A stretch of 64,000 nucleotides of DNA, from NCBI GenBank assembly GCA_946998225.1, contig CAMPYH010000001.1:388094-452093 (forward strand). Direction: 5' to 3'. The notes below the pieces were generated by a model. That model made no database searches. It was not told where the DNA came from and saw nothing but the letters and a program-made list of their open reading frames with translations. Source of the stretch: an uncultured Clostridiaceae bacterium (GTDB lineage: Bacteria; Bacillota; Clostridia; TANB77; CAG-508). A program made the translations under genes and the position numbers. Positions 3,112-25,555 of the stretch are shown here, piece by piece (the first letter of the stretch is position 1; each line of letters starts with the position of its first letter).

Positions 3112-3140
3112 TTGTTTTACTTAGAATTGTTGGATATAAT
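3112..3140 (+). promoter_or_regulatory. sigma-A type promoter TTGTTT-17-TATAAT
   Basis: -35 ttgttt (3112-3117), 17-nt spacer, -10 tataat (3135-3140). About 35 nt upstream of the RBS/ATG at 3175. Confidence 0.5.
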
Positions 3141-3174
3141 TACAAAGACGAAATATAAAGATTAAAGGAAAAAC

Positions 3175-4284
3175 ATGGATTTAAATATTATTAATAAAAT
3201 GGAAGAGATTCCTGAATCAAATTATGAGAGCTTTAATAAAAATATAAAATCTAAATATAATTTATCTAGAGATTTAAGAAAAACAGTCTTTGATAAAGAA
3301 TGGATAGAAGTTTTTAAAGAAATAATACCACATATAGATAATATACTTAGAAACCCAAATAGATTCATAATAAATGAAGAGGAAGTTGTTAAAATAGAAC
3401 TTGCTAGAAAAACAACAGTTGAGAGTATTAAACATTTATCTAAACATACAAATCTTATTCAATCTATCGATGAAGATACAGGTGATGTTATGCCTTCAAA
3501 AATTTTAAATATTAATAAAGAGGAAGATTACGCAACATACGAAAACAGAGTTATATACACATTAATACAAAATATGGAATTTTTTGTGCATAGGAGAAAA
3601 GAGGAGTTTTTAGCGGCGAGTAGTATGGATTCTAGAGATAATAAGTTTTTAAAATATTCTGGGCAAACAATTAATAAAAATAAAAATATTTCTTTAGAAA
3701 TAAGTTTAGATGTAAATAGTAAAGATCAAAACATTAAAAGTGAATATTTACAAGATATTGAAAATATAGAAGAAAAGATATTAATGCTTAAACATAATAA
3801 TGTATACAAAATATTAGAAAAGTCTAAAGTAGCATTAGTAAGACCGCCAGTTAAAAAAACAAATAGAATACTAAAAAATCCAGATTTTCAATATGCAATG
3901 CATTTATGGTCATATCTTCAAGATAATACTGAAAGTAAGACAAAGAAGATTGAAGAAAATGAAGAAATAACTAAAGACAAAGAACTTAAAAGATTAATTG
4001 ATGAAATCTTTTTATTGAATTATTTAGCTATAGAAGACTTTGATGAAGATGAATTAGAAAAAGAACTTAAAAAGAACAATAAAAAAACTAAAGAAAAAAT
4101 AACTGATTCACTTCTAGAAAAACTAATATTTGTAAATTCGTATCTATCTGAAGAAGAATTAAAAGATATGCTTTTAGATAAATATGAAAAGATTAAATAC
4201 AGATCAATGGTTACGTCAGAAGGTATTGAAAAAATATTTAAAGATAATATGGACAAAGTATTTAATATTATTAAGCTTAGTTAG
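3175..4284 (+). CDS. hypothetical cytoplasmic protein (first gene of accessory locus)
   Basis: 369-aa ORF with RBS aaaggaaaaac. K/E-rich, no TM segment, no motif I can assign with confidence. Confidence 0.6.
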   Translation: MDLNIINKMEEIPESNYESFNKNIKSKYNLSRDLRKTVFDKEWIEVFKEIIPHIDNILRNPNRFIINEEEVVKIELARKTTVESIKHLSKHTNLIQSIDEDTGDVMPSKILNINKEEDYATYENRVIYTLIQNMEFFVHRRKEEFLAASSMDSRDNKFLKYSGQTINKNKNISLEISLDVNSKDQNIKSEYLQDIENIEEKILMLKHNNVYKILEKSKVALVRPPVKKTNRILKNPDFQYAMHLWSYLQDNTESKTKKIEENEEITKDKELKRLIDEIFLLNYLAIEDFDEDELEKELKKNNKKTKEKITDSLLEKLIFVNSYLSEEELKDMLLDKYEKIKYRSMVTSEGIEKIFKDNMDKVFNIIKLS

Positions 4285-4311
4285 GAAATATAAGATTAAA
4301 GAGGATGGATA

Positions 4312-4908
4312 ATGTCAGTGGAAGAAAAAGAAACTAAAAAAATAGAAAAAAACGAAGAAGGAAAAAGCAAATTAGGTGTATTTAAAATTTTATATAATAT
4401 AATATATTATTTATTATATTTTGTGGTTTTTATCGTGATTATAATATCATTAGTACAAAGATTTAGTGATAACAAAAAATCACTTGGTGGTATAAGGATT
4501 TTTAATGTACTAACAGGAAGTATGGAGCCAAATTATCATGTGGGAGATATACTTTTTGTTAAAGATATAAAGCCATCTCAAATTAATATCGGTGATGATA
4601 TTTCCTATATAGGAAAGAAAACAGAATTTGATGGAATAGTAGTAACACATAGGGTTAAAGAAAAAGAAGTAAGAAAAGATAAAATATATTTTGTAACACA
4701 AGGTACAGCAAATCCATTACCAGATCCAGAAATATCTGAAGAACAGGTATATGGAAAGGTAATATATAAATCTGTAATATTATCTTTGTTTTCTCAACTT
4801 ATGAATAAAACAAGTGTTTTCTTTGTAATATTCTTGGCTATGGTATTTATCATAGCATTTAGATTAGTAGAAAAAAGAAGAAGTCTAGAAGAAAGTGAAG
4901 AGGAATAG
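4312..4908 (+). CDS. sipW: SipW-type (S26B, ER/archaeal-type) signal peptidase I, paralog 1
   Basis: N-terminal TM, catalytic Ser box LTGSMEPNYHVGDILFVK, His box VVTHRV, C-terminal TM and acidic tail. This is the SipW architecture. Confidence 0.8.
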   Translation: MSVEEKETKKIEKNEEGKSKLGVFKILYNIIYYLLYFVVFIVIIISLVQRFSDNKKSLGGIRIFNVLTGSMEPNYHVGDILFVKDIKPSQINIGDDISYIGKKTEFDGIVVTHRVKEKEVRKDKIYFVTQGTANPLPDPEISEEQVYGKVIYKSVILSLFSQLMNKTSVFFVIFLAMVFIIAFRLVEKRRSLEESEEE

Positions 4909-23314: not shown

Positions 23315-23339
23315 GCAAAACAAAAGAAAAAAGGATAAA

Positions 23340-24344
23340 ATGAGACATTCGAGAAATAATCAAAAGATATTAAAAAAAATACAAAAACTCGAAGCCAAAA
23401 AAGAAAAGAATAAGAAAAGGGTTAAAAAATCTAAATTAACACTTTCAACATTTTTAATTTTGGTAGTTCTTTTTATATTAATTTTACCTTTGTTAATTAC
23501 ATTTTCAAGATATGTAATTAAAAATATAGATAACTTTTTTCTAAGAACAGATAAATTTTATTTCACGTCAGACAAACTAGGAGAAAATAAACCAATATTT
23601 AAGATATTAAATTGGTCTGGTGTCGATGAATATAAAATAGTTATAAACATGAGCTCTGTAAATAATTTACGTCAAAGTACAGATTATGATATTGATTATA
23701 ATATAAACTATAACTCTTCAGATAATATAAATGTTAAAACAAATAAAAATGAAGGAAGAATTAGCAAAATTACAAAACAAGACATTATTACAGTAACAAT
23801 ATCACCAAAGGTACAACTTAAAGATAAAGACAAAGCATATGTTGAAATATCTGCCACATCAAAAACCAAATACGAGAAAAAAATATCAGGTAGATTTGAA
23901 TTTGAAGTAGGTAAAGAAGCCTTAACATATACAATAACTGATGAACAAAGAAAAAATTATATGATGGTAAATATTACAAATACAATACCATATTATACTG
24001 TTAGAAAAGCTTTCGGGAGATATAAGGTAGGTGATAGAGTTTCTAGAACAGATTATGATAATCTTTCTAAAACAGATAAGGCTAATCTTTATTCCGCAGA
24101 GGTGAAAATATCTTTTGATCCTAACAAATACATTTTGGATACAACATCACAAAAATATATTGAAAGAATAGATGAAAGCAAACAAAAAATTGATGGACAT
24201 GATTATTTAAATAGTATTAGTTTTAATATTAATCCAATCTCAAGTGCTGGAATTAGATTGTATAAAAAAAATCCACTTGAAGATAATACTTTTCCAAATA
24301 TAAATAATTCACCATCAGTAATTAAATTCGAAGTTATTAGATAA
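23340..24344 (+). CDS. secreted/anchored protein with long K-rich n-region and SipW-cognate-like signal (…LITFSRYVIKN)
   Basis: 35-aa K/R-rich N-terminus, TM, TFSRYV motif like TYSKYV of the 5608 protein. The C-terminus …VIKFEVIR resembles a TasA-like end. Confidence 0.5.
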   Translation: MRHSRNNQKILKKIQKLEAKKEKNKKRVKKSKLTLSTFLILVVLFILILPLLITFSRYVIKNIDNFFLRTDKFYFTSDKLGENKPIFKILNWSGVDEYKIVINMSSVNNLRQSTDYDIDYNINYNSSDNINVKTNKNEGRISKITKQDIITVTISPKVQLKDKDKAYVEISATSKTKYEKKISGRFEFEVGKEALTYTITDEQRKNYMMVNITNTIPYYTVRKAFGRYKVGDRVSRTDYDNLSKTDKANLYSAEVKISFDPNKYILDTTSQKYIERIDESKQKIDGHDYLNSISFNINPISSAGIRLYKKNPLEDNTFPNINNSPSVIKFEVIR

Positions 24345-24376
24345 GTAAAAATAAATAAAACAAAAAAGGATAATAA

Positions 24377-25555
24377 ATGTCATATAATCTTGCAAATAAA
24401 TATTTTAATAGGCTAGAAACAAATATATTAAATTATTATAAAAATATATTAGGAAATATGTATGAAGAAAGTGTATCTAAAGATTTTTTTAGATTGTTTT
24501 TAGATGCTAAATATAGATTAGATATATCATATTTGAAAACAGCAATGTCAATAAAAAATTATATAGATATTACTTCAAAAGAATTAAGAGATAGCAAACA
24601 AGAAGAACTTGCATTTCATAATACTAAAATAGATTATGCATATATTGCTTTAGAACATTTATATAATATAGACAAAATAGTAAATACATGTGTATTAAAT
24701 ATTTTAAAAATGTTTAAAAGTGAAGAATTAAAGGTTTTAAAAACAGAAATACAGAAACAAATATTTAAAGAATTAAAAGATAAAGAAGATAAAATAGAAA
24801 ATATAGTTAAAGAAATATATAGTACAAAAGAAAAAGAATATACAAAATTAGGTGAAAGCTTTAGAGAAAGCAAAGAGGAATTTTTAGAAGAATTTAAAAA
24901 TAAAATATGTGAGGACATATATGATAGAGTAGATCTTTTAAAAGATATGTATTTAATAGATAATTTTTATATAAAAACTAAAAATTTAAAAAAGATAATA
25001 AAAGAGAATGAAAATGGCAATGAAAAATTAGAAATTAGAATATTAGATTTAAAATATAATATAGAATTTCCATTAATATATAGCTCAAATGCAATAGAAG
25101 AAGTATATAATAATGATGAAATAATTAATGAAAATAGAAATTTAATATTATATTATTTAGCCACTCATGAAATAATTTTAGATTTAATGAATGAAGATAT
25201 AAACAAAGAATATATCTTAGACTTTCCAGAAAGTATAAAAGAAAAGGAACAAAAAAGAAAAACATTAACAAATATAATTTCATCAGAATATGTTAAAGAA
25301 AAATGTATAATGTGTTTGAGTTATGATTTCTTTAATAATAATGAAAAATACCTATTCCCATTAATAAAAGAAGGATATAAATTTTGTCTTAAAATAGAAG
25401 ATGTATACAATATAGATTTAAAAGATATACAAAGATTTGAGCTTCTAAAATATATAATTATAGATGGAGAAGAGTTAAAAGAAGAAGAGGTAAATGAATA
25501 TAAAAGAATGTTAAAGGATAATAATTATCCAGAAGAAAATATATTTGTTATATAA
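24377..25555 (+). CDS. hypothetical cytoplasmic protein
   Basis: 392-aa ORF. Faint layout similarity of the C-terminal half to a degenerate EAL fold (…LIKEGYKFCLKIEDVYNIDLKDIQRFELLKYIIID), with no catalytic residues conserved. Confidence 0.5.
   Translation: MSYNLANKYFNRLETNILNYYKNILGNMYEESVSKDFFRLFLDAKYRLDISYLKTAMSIKNYIDITSKELRDSKQEELAFHNTKIDYAYIALEHLYNIDKIVNTCVLNILKMFKSEELKVLKTEIQKQIFKELKDKEDKIENIVKEIYSTKEKEYTKLGESFRESKEEFLEEFKNKICEDIYDRVDLLKDMYLIDNFYIKTKNLKKIIKENENGNEKLEIRILDLKYNIEFPLIYSSNAIEEVYNNDEIINENRNLILYYLATHEIILDLMNEDINKEYILDFPESIKEKEQKRKTLTNIISSEYVKEKCIMCLSYDFFNNNEKYLFPLIKEGYKFCLKIEDVYNIDLKDIQRFELLKYIIIDGEELKEEEVNEYKRMLKDNNYPEENIFVI

Follow-up and report, generated by a model that had tools for sequence, protein, structure and literature searches.

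The best-described relatives of the system reported here are small operons. In Bacillus, the tapA-sipW-tasA operon of B. subtilis and the sipW-tasA-calY genes of B. cereus each place a dedicated signal peptidase of the S26B (SipW) type beside its own substrates, which carry a SipW-cognate signal and comprise a major subunit and accessory subunits. Clostridium perfringens has a sipW-bsaA-bsaB-bsaC operon that encodes several remote TasA-like subunits; donor-strand exchange has been modelled for them, and their secretion needs type IV pilus proteins (PMC11580942). We analyzed a 64-kb stretch of DNA (64,000 nucleotides, the window) from an uncultured Clostridiaceae bacterium (contig CAMPYH010000001.1, positions 388,094 to 452,093; window position 1 is its first letter), in which 101 frames stay open for 90 codons or more. 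We found that ~24 kb of it, from 3175 to 27235, is most likely a single chromosomal system that builds a protein structure on the cell surface. The principle, a dedicated SipW with cognate structural substrates, is already known. What is new is the composition: a single cluster brings together three peptidases, a pseudo-peptidase, novel families of subunits, a giant protein and an apparently co-opted, McrBC-like nucleoside triphosphatase (NTPase).

In the cluster, 17 genes share one orientation, two (g07 and g13) run on the opposite strand, and there is also a small open reading frame (ORF). Nearly all genes in the window are on the plus strand, and the G+C content is ~25%. About 10 of 15 cluster genes have no family assignment above threshold. 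The genes are as follows; a slash marks the predicted cleavage site.

3175-4284, plus strand: g04, cytoplasmic DUF2357 (McrC-like) protein of 369 amino acids (Pfam DUF2357, E 2.2e-8; no hydrophobic segment)
4312-4908, plus strand: g05, SipW-type signal peptidase 1, predicted active (TIGR02228, 90.9 bits; GSMEP and THR motifs conserved in the family)
4909-5535, plus strand: g06, small, predicted secreted subunit with a TYAWF site (K-rich tail, hydrophobic core, NTYAWF; 37 loci)
5608-6234, minus strand: g07, small, predicted secreted beta-sandwich subunit of the A2 family with a TYS/KY site (paralog of g15)
6367-7215, plus strand: g08, predicted K-rich cytoplasmic tail of 50 amino acids, one hydrophobic segment (51-88) and an extracellular domain (68 loci)
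7334-8320, plus strand: g09, probable major structural subunit with an STYA/WF site (TIGR04088 match)
8654-10291, plus strand: g10, cytoplasmic protein of 545 amino acids (no hydrophobic segment; 56 loci)
10328-18736, plus strand: g11, secreted or anchored giant of 2802 amino acids, putative beta-solenoid adhesin (hydrophobic segment 19-44)
18790-19467, plus strand: g12, SipW-type signal peptidase 2, predicted active (TIGR02228, 90.4 bits; NSMKP, THR and a GDNN box)
19533-20687, minus strand: g13, cytoplasmic protein with a Rho_N/HeH-like motif (Pfam Rho_N, E 1.6e-5)
20823-21419, plus strand: g14, conserved SipW paralog, pseudo-peptidase (NF046067, E 2.6e-6; 44 loci; two hydrophobic segments)
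21421-22020, plus strand: g15, small, predicted secreted subunit of the A2 family with a TYS/LF site (paralog of g07; P2' F or Y in 27 of 27 members)
22072-22623, plus strand: g16, SipW-type signal peptidase 3, predicted active (TIGR02228, 83.3 bits; GSMEP and THR; 65 loci)
22661-23314, plus strand: g17, predicted secreted subunit related to the A2 family with a TSA/LF site (P2' aromatic in 30 of 31)
23340-24344, plus strand: g18, secreted or anchored protein of 334 amino acids with a TFS/RY site (hydrophobic segment 30-61)
24377-25555, plus strand: g19, cytoplasmic protein of 392 amino acids (always between g18 and g20; syntenic gene in 36 loci)
25614-27161, plus strand: g20, membrane-anchored McrB-like AAA+ NTPase (hydrophobic segment 50-86)

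A preliminary description of this DNA had seen a multiplied tapA-sipW-tasA module combined with an adhesin, ending at 25555 and having no characterised counterpart. Its observations were confirmed in part, and its interpretation received partial support. The cluster actually runs on to the end of g20 at 27161, or to a terminator at 27212-27235. The description was also incomplete, in that it omitted the strictly co-conserved pair of a McrB-like AAA+ protein and a DUF2357 protein, as well as the conservation of the pseudo-peptidase. As it had proposed, no characterised counterpart turned up in the literature searched (SipW with McrB, TasA-like donor strands, RF39/TANB77, and recent work on SipW).

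Compared to the Bacillus operons, the cluster has three predicted active peptidases instead of one, and a conserved pseudo-peptidase where those operons have none. Its substrate genes number six or more and fall into at least three families, and it includes the gene for a giant of 2802 amino acids. It also encodes a membrane McrB-like AAA+ protein, a DUF2357 partner and two to three more cytoplasmic proteins, whereas the Bacillus operons have no cytoplasmic machinery. The cluster resembles that of C. perfringens in being a clostridial SipW operon with several subunits. It differs in having McrBC-like accessory machinery rather than a type IV pilus, and it has no vWA protein.

We found that three of the encoded peptidases are of the SipW type and not of the LepB type. 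g05, g12 and g16 were all above the 51.85-bit cutoff of TIGR02228 (S26B; archaeal and endoplasmic reticulum type), and scored only 14.3-32.9 bits with the LepB-type model TIGR02227, under its cutoff of 47. The three proteins have a catalytic Ser (SM.P box) and His (THR box) in place of a Ser-Lys dyad, and these boxes are conserved within both families checked (g05 and g16). Each has hydrophobic segments at its N- and C-termini. None is an equivalog of B. subtilis SipW: scores with NF046067 were 54.8-75.7 bits compared to a cutoff of 190. Thus the three intact peptidases reported at 4312, 18790 and 22072 are indeed there, and so is the degenerate paralog at 20823 (g14). g14 is homologous to the g05 family (hhalign, 98.4%), its His is replaced, and the Ser column is not conserved. 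Since 44 related loci have kept the gene, it is a conserved pseudo-peptidase and not a gene in decay.

The second peptidase, g12, is an additional copy in the lineage of the window; it was the best match for an ORF in a few loci only (e.g., L027 and L063). It was thought that each peptidase lies beside one or more of its substrates. The cognate substrates do cluster with the peptidases, but g12 adjoins no motif-bearing substrate and is flanked by the giant gene g11 and the opposite-strand cytoplasmic gene g13.

Six genes (g06, g07, g09, g15, g17 and g18) encode proteins in which a K-rich N-terminus leads into a hydrophobic core and a site resembling T-[YF]-[AS]/x-[FY] follows. All of the signal architectures first described, TYAWF (twice), TYSKYV, TYSLFE, TSALFS and TFSRYV, are present. 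A composite pattern, a hydrophobic 14-mer followed by [TSV][YFLSM][ASG]x[FY], occurs eight times in the 101 frames: six times in the substrate genes and twice in antisense artefacts. That is, among the real genes of the window it is confined to the six genes of the locus, and is therefore a locus-specific feature. We aligned the cleavage sites of five substrate families, each with up to 30 other species. P1 was A, S or G in essentially all members, and P2' was F or Y in 27-31 of 31 across the five families; in the g18 family, R-Y followed the small residue in 29-31 of 31 members. The cleavage region of TasA (GTWA/AF) is similar, with T, an aromatic residue and a small residue before the cut and an aromatic residue at P2'. 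As one report has it, the Phe at P2' makes TasA a poor substrate for LepB and a substrate for SipW (PMC10269814).

Of these families, only that of g09 matched the model of the SipW-cognate signal, TIGR04088. g09 itself scored 19.2 bits (cutoff 19), and 25 of 38 members of its family matched (E up to 1; best E 4.9e-5). The smaller substrate families had no match to this hidden Markov model (HMM), though their small P1 and F or Y at P2' are conserved. In the g09 family YAWFT.N..V is invariant, and conservation within g09 is highest in the strand next to the cleavage site.

The substrate families are linked to one another by hhalign: g07 with g15 (99.9%), g15 with g17 (95%, 126 columns), g09 with g15 (88%), and g17 with g18 (82%, N-terminal region only). 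g08, which is not one of the six, shares a C-terminal block with g09 (blastp E 0.018; hhalign 74.6%). The family consensus of g08 has G-G-x-F following the hydrophobic segment, so that its cleavage is possible from the sequence; g08 could be a membrane-proximal base subunit or another cleaved substrate. g17 is a possible initiator or adaptor. g18 had no family match in the Pfam and NCBIfam scans, and the profile of the A2 small subunits (g07 and g15) matched 3388 clusters (50% identity) at E<=1e-3.

The start of g06 is unusual. There is no ATG, GTG or TTG before its signal peptide, and the frame continues directly after the TAG stop of the upstream peptidase gene, g05. Two candidate starts, ATA at 4912 and ATT at 4927, each have a Shine-Dalgarno-like GAGGA upstream. 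In four other species (L017, 7839-7900; L022, 7812-7830; L032, 7661-7690; L018, 7465-7495), g06 overlaps the 3' end of sipW out of frame, and the overlap carries runs of 10 to 11 A. It is possible that g06 uses a non-canonical start with translational coupling, that slippage gives a SipW-substrate fusion, or that the homopolymers contain assembly errors.

The substrates are not members of the TasA family by sequence. We compared them to genuine TasA homologs, all of which carry the Pfam domain PF12389 (Peptidase_M73). For profile comparisons the reference was an alignment of 36 of these homologs, and a single TasA was used as well. It had been thought that at least five of the proteins end in TasA- or camelysin-like C-termini. 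The pattern is visible, and the last two strands of the A2 family align to the C-terminal strands of TasA, but with a probability of only 7%. The alignments of the A2 and g09 families to TasA are co-linear, and comparisons with the single TasA were likewise not significant. A search of 1.84 billion representatives for bridging sequences returned matches of which the best 150 were all in-family (E<=1e-34). The substrates also had no match to Peptidase_M73/TasA models in Pfam or NCBIfam, relaxed E values included. With the TapA model TIGR04087, g17 scored 20.9 bits (E 2.2e-4) compared to a cutoff of 80, and two members of the A2 family matched at E 0.004. In this respect the cluster differs from the Bacillus operons, and also from C. 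perfringens, where BsaA can be reached from TasA by iterative HMM searches and the substrates here cannot (PMC11580942).

g09 (predicted local distance difference test, pLDDT, 85) and g07 (pLDDT 78.6) were both modelled as beta-sandwiches in which the segment following the cleavage site has low confidence. A Foldseek search of the PDB with the g09 model gave no significant match, and profile searches of PDB sequences with g09, A2, g04, g10, g19 and the giant g11 gave none. Carbohydrate-binding modules and other sandwiches scored as well as TasA in comparisons with the predicted folds. Plausibly, the substrates work like subunits of the TasA type or another donor-strand type without belonging to the TasA family. 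Archaeal donor-strand filaments (AbpA bundling pili, CanA/CanX cannulae, DUF1102 tubes and Saci_0406 threads) are alike at the level of the fold only; they use a general signal peptidase and no NTPase.

The generic fold and the absence of significant TasA homology would fit proteins that are processed by SipW and do not form filaments, but instead coat the surface of these reduced-genome bacteria, make up an S-layer-like envelope, or act in soluble form as matrix or adhesin, with the SipW copies perhaps serving as main signal peptidases. Genomes of ~1.7 Mb could indeed lack LepB, a question that weighs on the fibre reading as well. We consider this alternative unlikely. The motif is confined to the locus within the window, and so these are not general secretory substrates. 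The strand at the cleavage site is the most conserved part of g09 and is common to the substrate families, which fits a structural strand better than a signal end that is thrown away. Several small paralogous subunits with one dominant subunit are typical of pilus-like systems, and no known wall-anchoring or S-layer-anchoring domain was found in Pfam and NCBIfam scans of the cluster proteins.

Two other kinds of pilus were considered. A sortase-assembled pilus was rejected: the substrates end without LPXTG or a C-terminal anchor, and the sortase at 1281-1934 is restricted to the species of the window. A type IV or Tad pilus was rejected as well, since no prepilin peptidase, PilB/TadA ATPase or platform protein was found among the cluster proteins; weak matches to TadE (E ~2) are noise from hydrophobic N-termini. 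A published 'conserved pilin' cluster of TANB77 (PMC11680825) is likewise a conserved appendage cluster of uncultured gut Clostridia with reduced genomes, in which most proteins are small and unannotated and start with a hydrophobic segment. It is not this locus. It is a Tad system with different genes, CpaB, TadZ/CpaE, TadA/CpaF, TadB/C and pilin-like proteins, all of them absent here, and its description mentions neither a SipW nor a McrB-like gene.

The cluster encodes a pair of proteins related to McrBC. g20 matched E. coli McrB chains (E 0.005-0.008), with the Walker A motif, DEMNIA/DEINRA (DExN.A) and an FAE/FGE signature aligned, and its AAA+ core also has an NxxD block. g20 is apparently a competent McrB-like NTPase. 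GISGTGKT and DEMNI.RVEYYFAEML are at least 90% conserved in 31 sequences. g20 also matched the PADLOC candidate PDC-M26A (E 1.4e-36), and is 34-37% identical to plasmid genes annotated 'AAA family ATPase'. In both of two plasmid neighbourhoods inspected, a gene for ~610-630 amino acids lies directly downstream of the AAA ATPase gene; one of these is a DUF2357 gene (Pfam-confirmed) and the other is hypothetical with no Pfam match. The g04 family aligns to residues 125-324 of a DUF2357 protein of 608 amino acids (hhalign, 88.8%), whose gene on a Rhodoferax plasmid lies 3' of one for a homologous AAA ATPase. In 37 of 38 related loci g04 comes immediately after g20, the same order as in the plasmid homologs. 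Thus, one of the four K/E-rich cytoplasmic proteins initially listed as being of unknown function, that encoded at 3175-4284, is a DUF2357/McrC-like protein.

The pair differs from McrBC restriction systems and from PDC-M26 in what it lacks and where it lies. The N-terminal 200 amino acids of g20 consist of a hydrophobic segment and a linker, with no match to a DNA-binding or DNA-reader domain. g04 is ~240 amino acids shorter than the plasmid DUF2357 partner and had no match to a PD-(D/E)xK nuclease in Pfam. With a short g04 and no reader on g20, the module appears to have lost its DNA-reader and nuclease parts. The pair is also embedded at a fixed position in a cluster for secretion and surface proteins.

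The similarity of g20 to PDC-M26A, to the plasmid pairs and to McrB raises the question of whether the cluster is a mosaic, in which a SipW/TasA-like matrix operon encloses an unrelated anti-phage module of the McrBC type (g20/g04, perhaps with g19). Defence islands are normally variable. In contrast, no gene of the cluster is better conserved than g20 (median identity 64% across loci), whose position between g19 and g04-g05 is fixed in metagenome-assembled genomes (MAGs) titled Clostridia and Bacilli alike. One would expect this of a core component but not of a defence gene that hitch-hikes. In addition, the membrane segment and linker of g20 stand where a reader would be, g04 has 369 amino acids compared to ~610, a partial alignment and no nuclease domain, and it matched no PADLOC model. 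We hold a mosaic to be quite improbable. That g20 and g04 are functionally integrated with the surface system is, in our estimate, somewhat more likely than not.

The cluster is widespread, and the gene order recurs. g09 has 2480 detectable homologs, all without a name; one homolog is on at least 1000 contigs, indexed in 2162 collection blocks, and the carrier genomes are ~1.7 Mb. Scanning one genome for each species, we detected relatives of g09 in 409 stretches (species-level genomes), almost all MAGs or other metagenome-derived assemblies, in which the genes are annotated throughout as hypothetical. The record titles, which we used for host taxonomy, name among others Clostridia, Bacilli, Mycoplasma or Tenericutes bacteria, including Clostridium sp. 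CAG:609 and CAG:780, Mycoplasma sp. CAG:877 and Firmicutes bacterium CAG:884. In 39 of the 409 loci, with full 10-kb flanks, most genes of the set recur. The order g14-g20 followed by g04-g11 was found across loci with 41-55% identity in g09. The conserved unit is one fixed set of ~15 genes, with no recent local multiplication, contrary to the notion of a multiplied module.

The usual order in relatives is g14-g15-g16-g17-g18-g19-g20-g04-g05-g06-g07-g08-g09-g10-g11, with g07 on the opposite strand. The cluster in the window is circularly permuted compared to that in L001-L004 and L011-L082: it reads g04 through g11, then g12, g13, and g14 through g20. That is, the halves are swapped, and g20 and g04, normally adjacent, are 21 kb apart. 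The extra peptidase gene g12 and the lineage-restricted, opposite-strand g13 lie at the junction of the swapped halves. No record matched the sequence of g09 exactly. A 99%-identical copy of g09 on a 91-kb metagenome contig has the same gene order as the window. MAGs with Bacilli in their titles show another shuffling of the blocks and carry duplicates of g09 and g14.

The distribution and the surroundings bear on whether the cluster could be an apparatus derived from a mobile element or phage (conjugation-like or tail-like) rather than a surface organelle of the host. Such an element could well contain an AAA+ ATPase, a giant protein with repeats and many genes of unknown function. One viral contig carries a relative of g09, and one fecal phage record is 30% identical to the AAA+ domain of g20. 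We found relatives of g09 in only 1 of 2.9 million viral contigs, compared to 409 species genomes. Profile searches of the cluster and of ten downstream genes revealed no gene for an integrase, a relaxase, a capsid or a tail. The window is uniform in base composition throughout. The flanking genes are chromosomal in character: a sortase gene and what we take to be an arginyl-tRNA synthetase gene upstream, and, downstream, a gene that is presumably dprA, both read from sequence, followed by genes for PNPase, plsX, miaB and mutS (Pfam-confirmed). Based on this context and distribution, an origin from a phage or plasmid was rejected, and we regard a mobile or phage-derived apparatus as very improbable.

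Our preferred reading is that the cluster encodes a SipW-dependent surface fibre or adhesin apparatus, probably of the donor-strand kind, with a co-opted NTPase. In such an apparatus, six (perhaps eight) pre-proteins would be exported via Sec by means of their K-rich n-region and hydrophobic core, and would be cut at [TSV]-[YF]-[ASG]/x-[FY] by the three dedicated SipW-type peptidases. The freed, conserved N-terminal strand of each beta-sandwich subunit (WFT.N.TVTV in g09) would then complement the next subunit. g09 would be the major subunit, and g06, g07, g15, g17 and g18 would be minor, initiator or adaptor subunits. g08 might form the membrane-proximal base, unless it is itself cleaved at its possible G-G/x-F site. 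The fibre could carry or accompany g11, the adhesin of 2802 amino acids, with g10 as the dedicated cytoplasmic accessory of g11. The inactive SipW, g14, would probably be a non-catalytic partner or substrate holder. At the cytoplasmic face, a membrane-tethered AAA+ hexamer of g20, together with its McrC-like activator g04 and with g19 and g10, may do NTP-dependent work or act as a gate.

We put this overall picture at about an even chance, and the donor-strand step at slightly below that. Several points weigh against it. No protein in the window matched PF12389 at E<=0.05, and none of 38 members of the g09 family and 25 of the A2 family did so even at E<=10. Profile-profile comparisons to the TasA alignment were not significant for either family: 7% (E 0.005, C-terminal strands) for A2, and 2% (signal and first strand) for g09. 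On these grounds membership in the TasA family was rejected. With a deeper profile, the relatedness among the substrate families lies mostly in the signal and the first-strand, N-terminal region. We know of no SipW/TasA-type system that uses a cytoplasmic NTPase, and the role given to g20 and g04 would be without precedent. Finally, that subunits polymerise by strand exchange is something we infer, along with export by Sec, cleavage itself, the roles of the subunits and that of the NTPase.

It is possible, though in our estimate less likely than not, that the picture extends further: to a McrBC-derived membrane AAA+ NTPase (g20/g04, with g19 and g10) that drives or gates SipW-processed donor-strand fibres and a giant adhesin, with a pseudo-signal-peptidase as an assembly factor. 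This would be an unrecognised class of Gram-positive surface organelle, specific to uncultured, genome-reduced gut Firmicutes and maybe used for attachment to host mucosa or partner microbes. There is a similar, real chance that the NTPase makes the system a mechanistically new class. If the picture is true, it extends the SipW/TasA paradigm to a system that has several specialised peptidases as well as a pseudo-peptidase and an NTPase in the cytoplasm, and shows a McrBC-type module put to use beyond DNA restriction. The cluster is among the few large, strictly conserved gene sets of uncultured, low-GC gut lineages that are abundant in human gut metagenomes. Should it make a fibre or adhesin, these reduced-genome organisms may use it to attach to host or partner, and it would be a source of abundant surface antigens. 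The new pilin-like families (the 3388 clusters that match the small-subunit profile) and the defined cleavage motif offer material for tests.

The giant g11, as first described, is a real ORF; it has an N-terminal hydrophobic segment and repeats. There are ~22 repeats of the type [IVFL][YFV]-GG, mostly 24-26 amino acids apart, between residues 1134 and 1890. The beta-helix attributed to it would follow from this repeat pattern; g11 had no match in Pfam or among PDB sequences. Counterparts of 1800-2730 amino acids are present in 50 loci. g10 always adjoins the giant gene, in both orders, and had no match in Pfam, NCBIfam or PDB.

g19 has a C-terminal half (family pattern YIVEF...G.KFA..LD.SF...F.Y.I..K) that resembles a degenerate EAL domain. 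Among 46 sequences (20 members of the g19, 12 of the g10 and 14 of the g18 family), EAL was the commonest Pfam family, with three matches in unspecified sequences (best E 0.014), and a profile search of PDB sequences with g19 found no EAL domain. With three weak matches and no EAL in PDB, the assignment was rejected as anything beyond a lead, and a link to cyclic di-GMP is suggested by sequence as a lead only. g13 was found in only two other loci, there too after a pair of a SipW and an A2-like gene; whether it belongs to the system is uncertain.

Three smaller features lie within the cluster.

8355-8379, plus strand: intrinsic-terminator-like hairpin just 3' of g09 (11-bp stem, then a T run)
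8515-8640, plus strand: small conserved ORF of 41 amino acids between g09 and g10 (called in L005 and L006)
27212-27235, plus strand: terminator-like hairpin that closes the g14-g20 operon (10-bp stem plus a T run)

The first hairpin would be consistent with a highly expressed gene for a major subunit and attenuated read-through into the genes beyond. The small ORF has a counterpart of 35 amino acids at 11158-11265 of L001, a locus with 52% identity in g09; the two have ITEIS..L....Y....FIK.L in common, and the ORF probably encodes a real small cytoplasmic protein.

We noted several other features in the window. A sequence at 27287-27314, just past the cluster terminator, fits the sigma-70 consensus perfectly (TTGACA-16-TATAAT); it lies upstream of an ORF (27337-28353) that we take, from its own sequence, to be dprA-like. 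Upstream of the cluster, the sortase gene at 1281-1934 (Pfam, E 2.6e-21) is followed by a gene, to 2947, for a protein that has a signal peptide, an SH3_3 domain and a hydrophobic tail at its C-terminus (VPNVGNN, a hydrophobic segment, then KNKR). This pair is found only in the species of the window (L005) and is outside the conserved cluster; the tail may be an atypical sorting signal. Farther downstream, 38768-41929 encodes a Cna_B-domain surface protein of 1053 amino acids, and the ORFs at 48749-50641 (630 amino acids) and 51666-53051 (461 amino acids) had no Pfam match at E<=1e-5. Both GC and AT skew are positive through the window and are approximately zero or negative in 62001-64000, where the first long minus-strand gene appears (62204-63790). 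This drop may mark a switch of replication strand or the boundary of a rearrangement.

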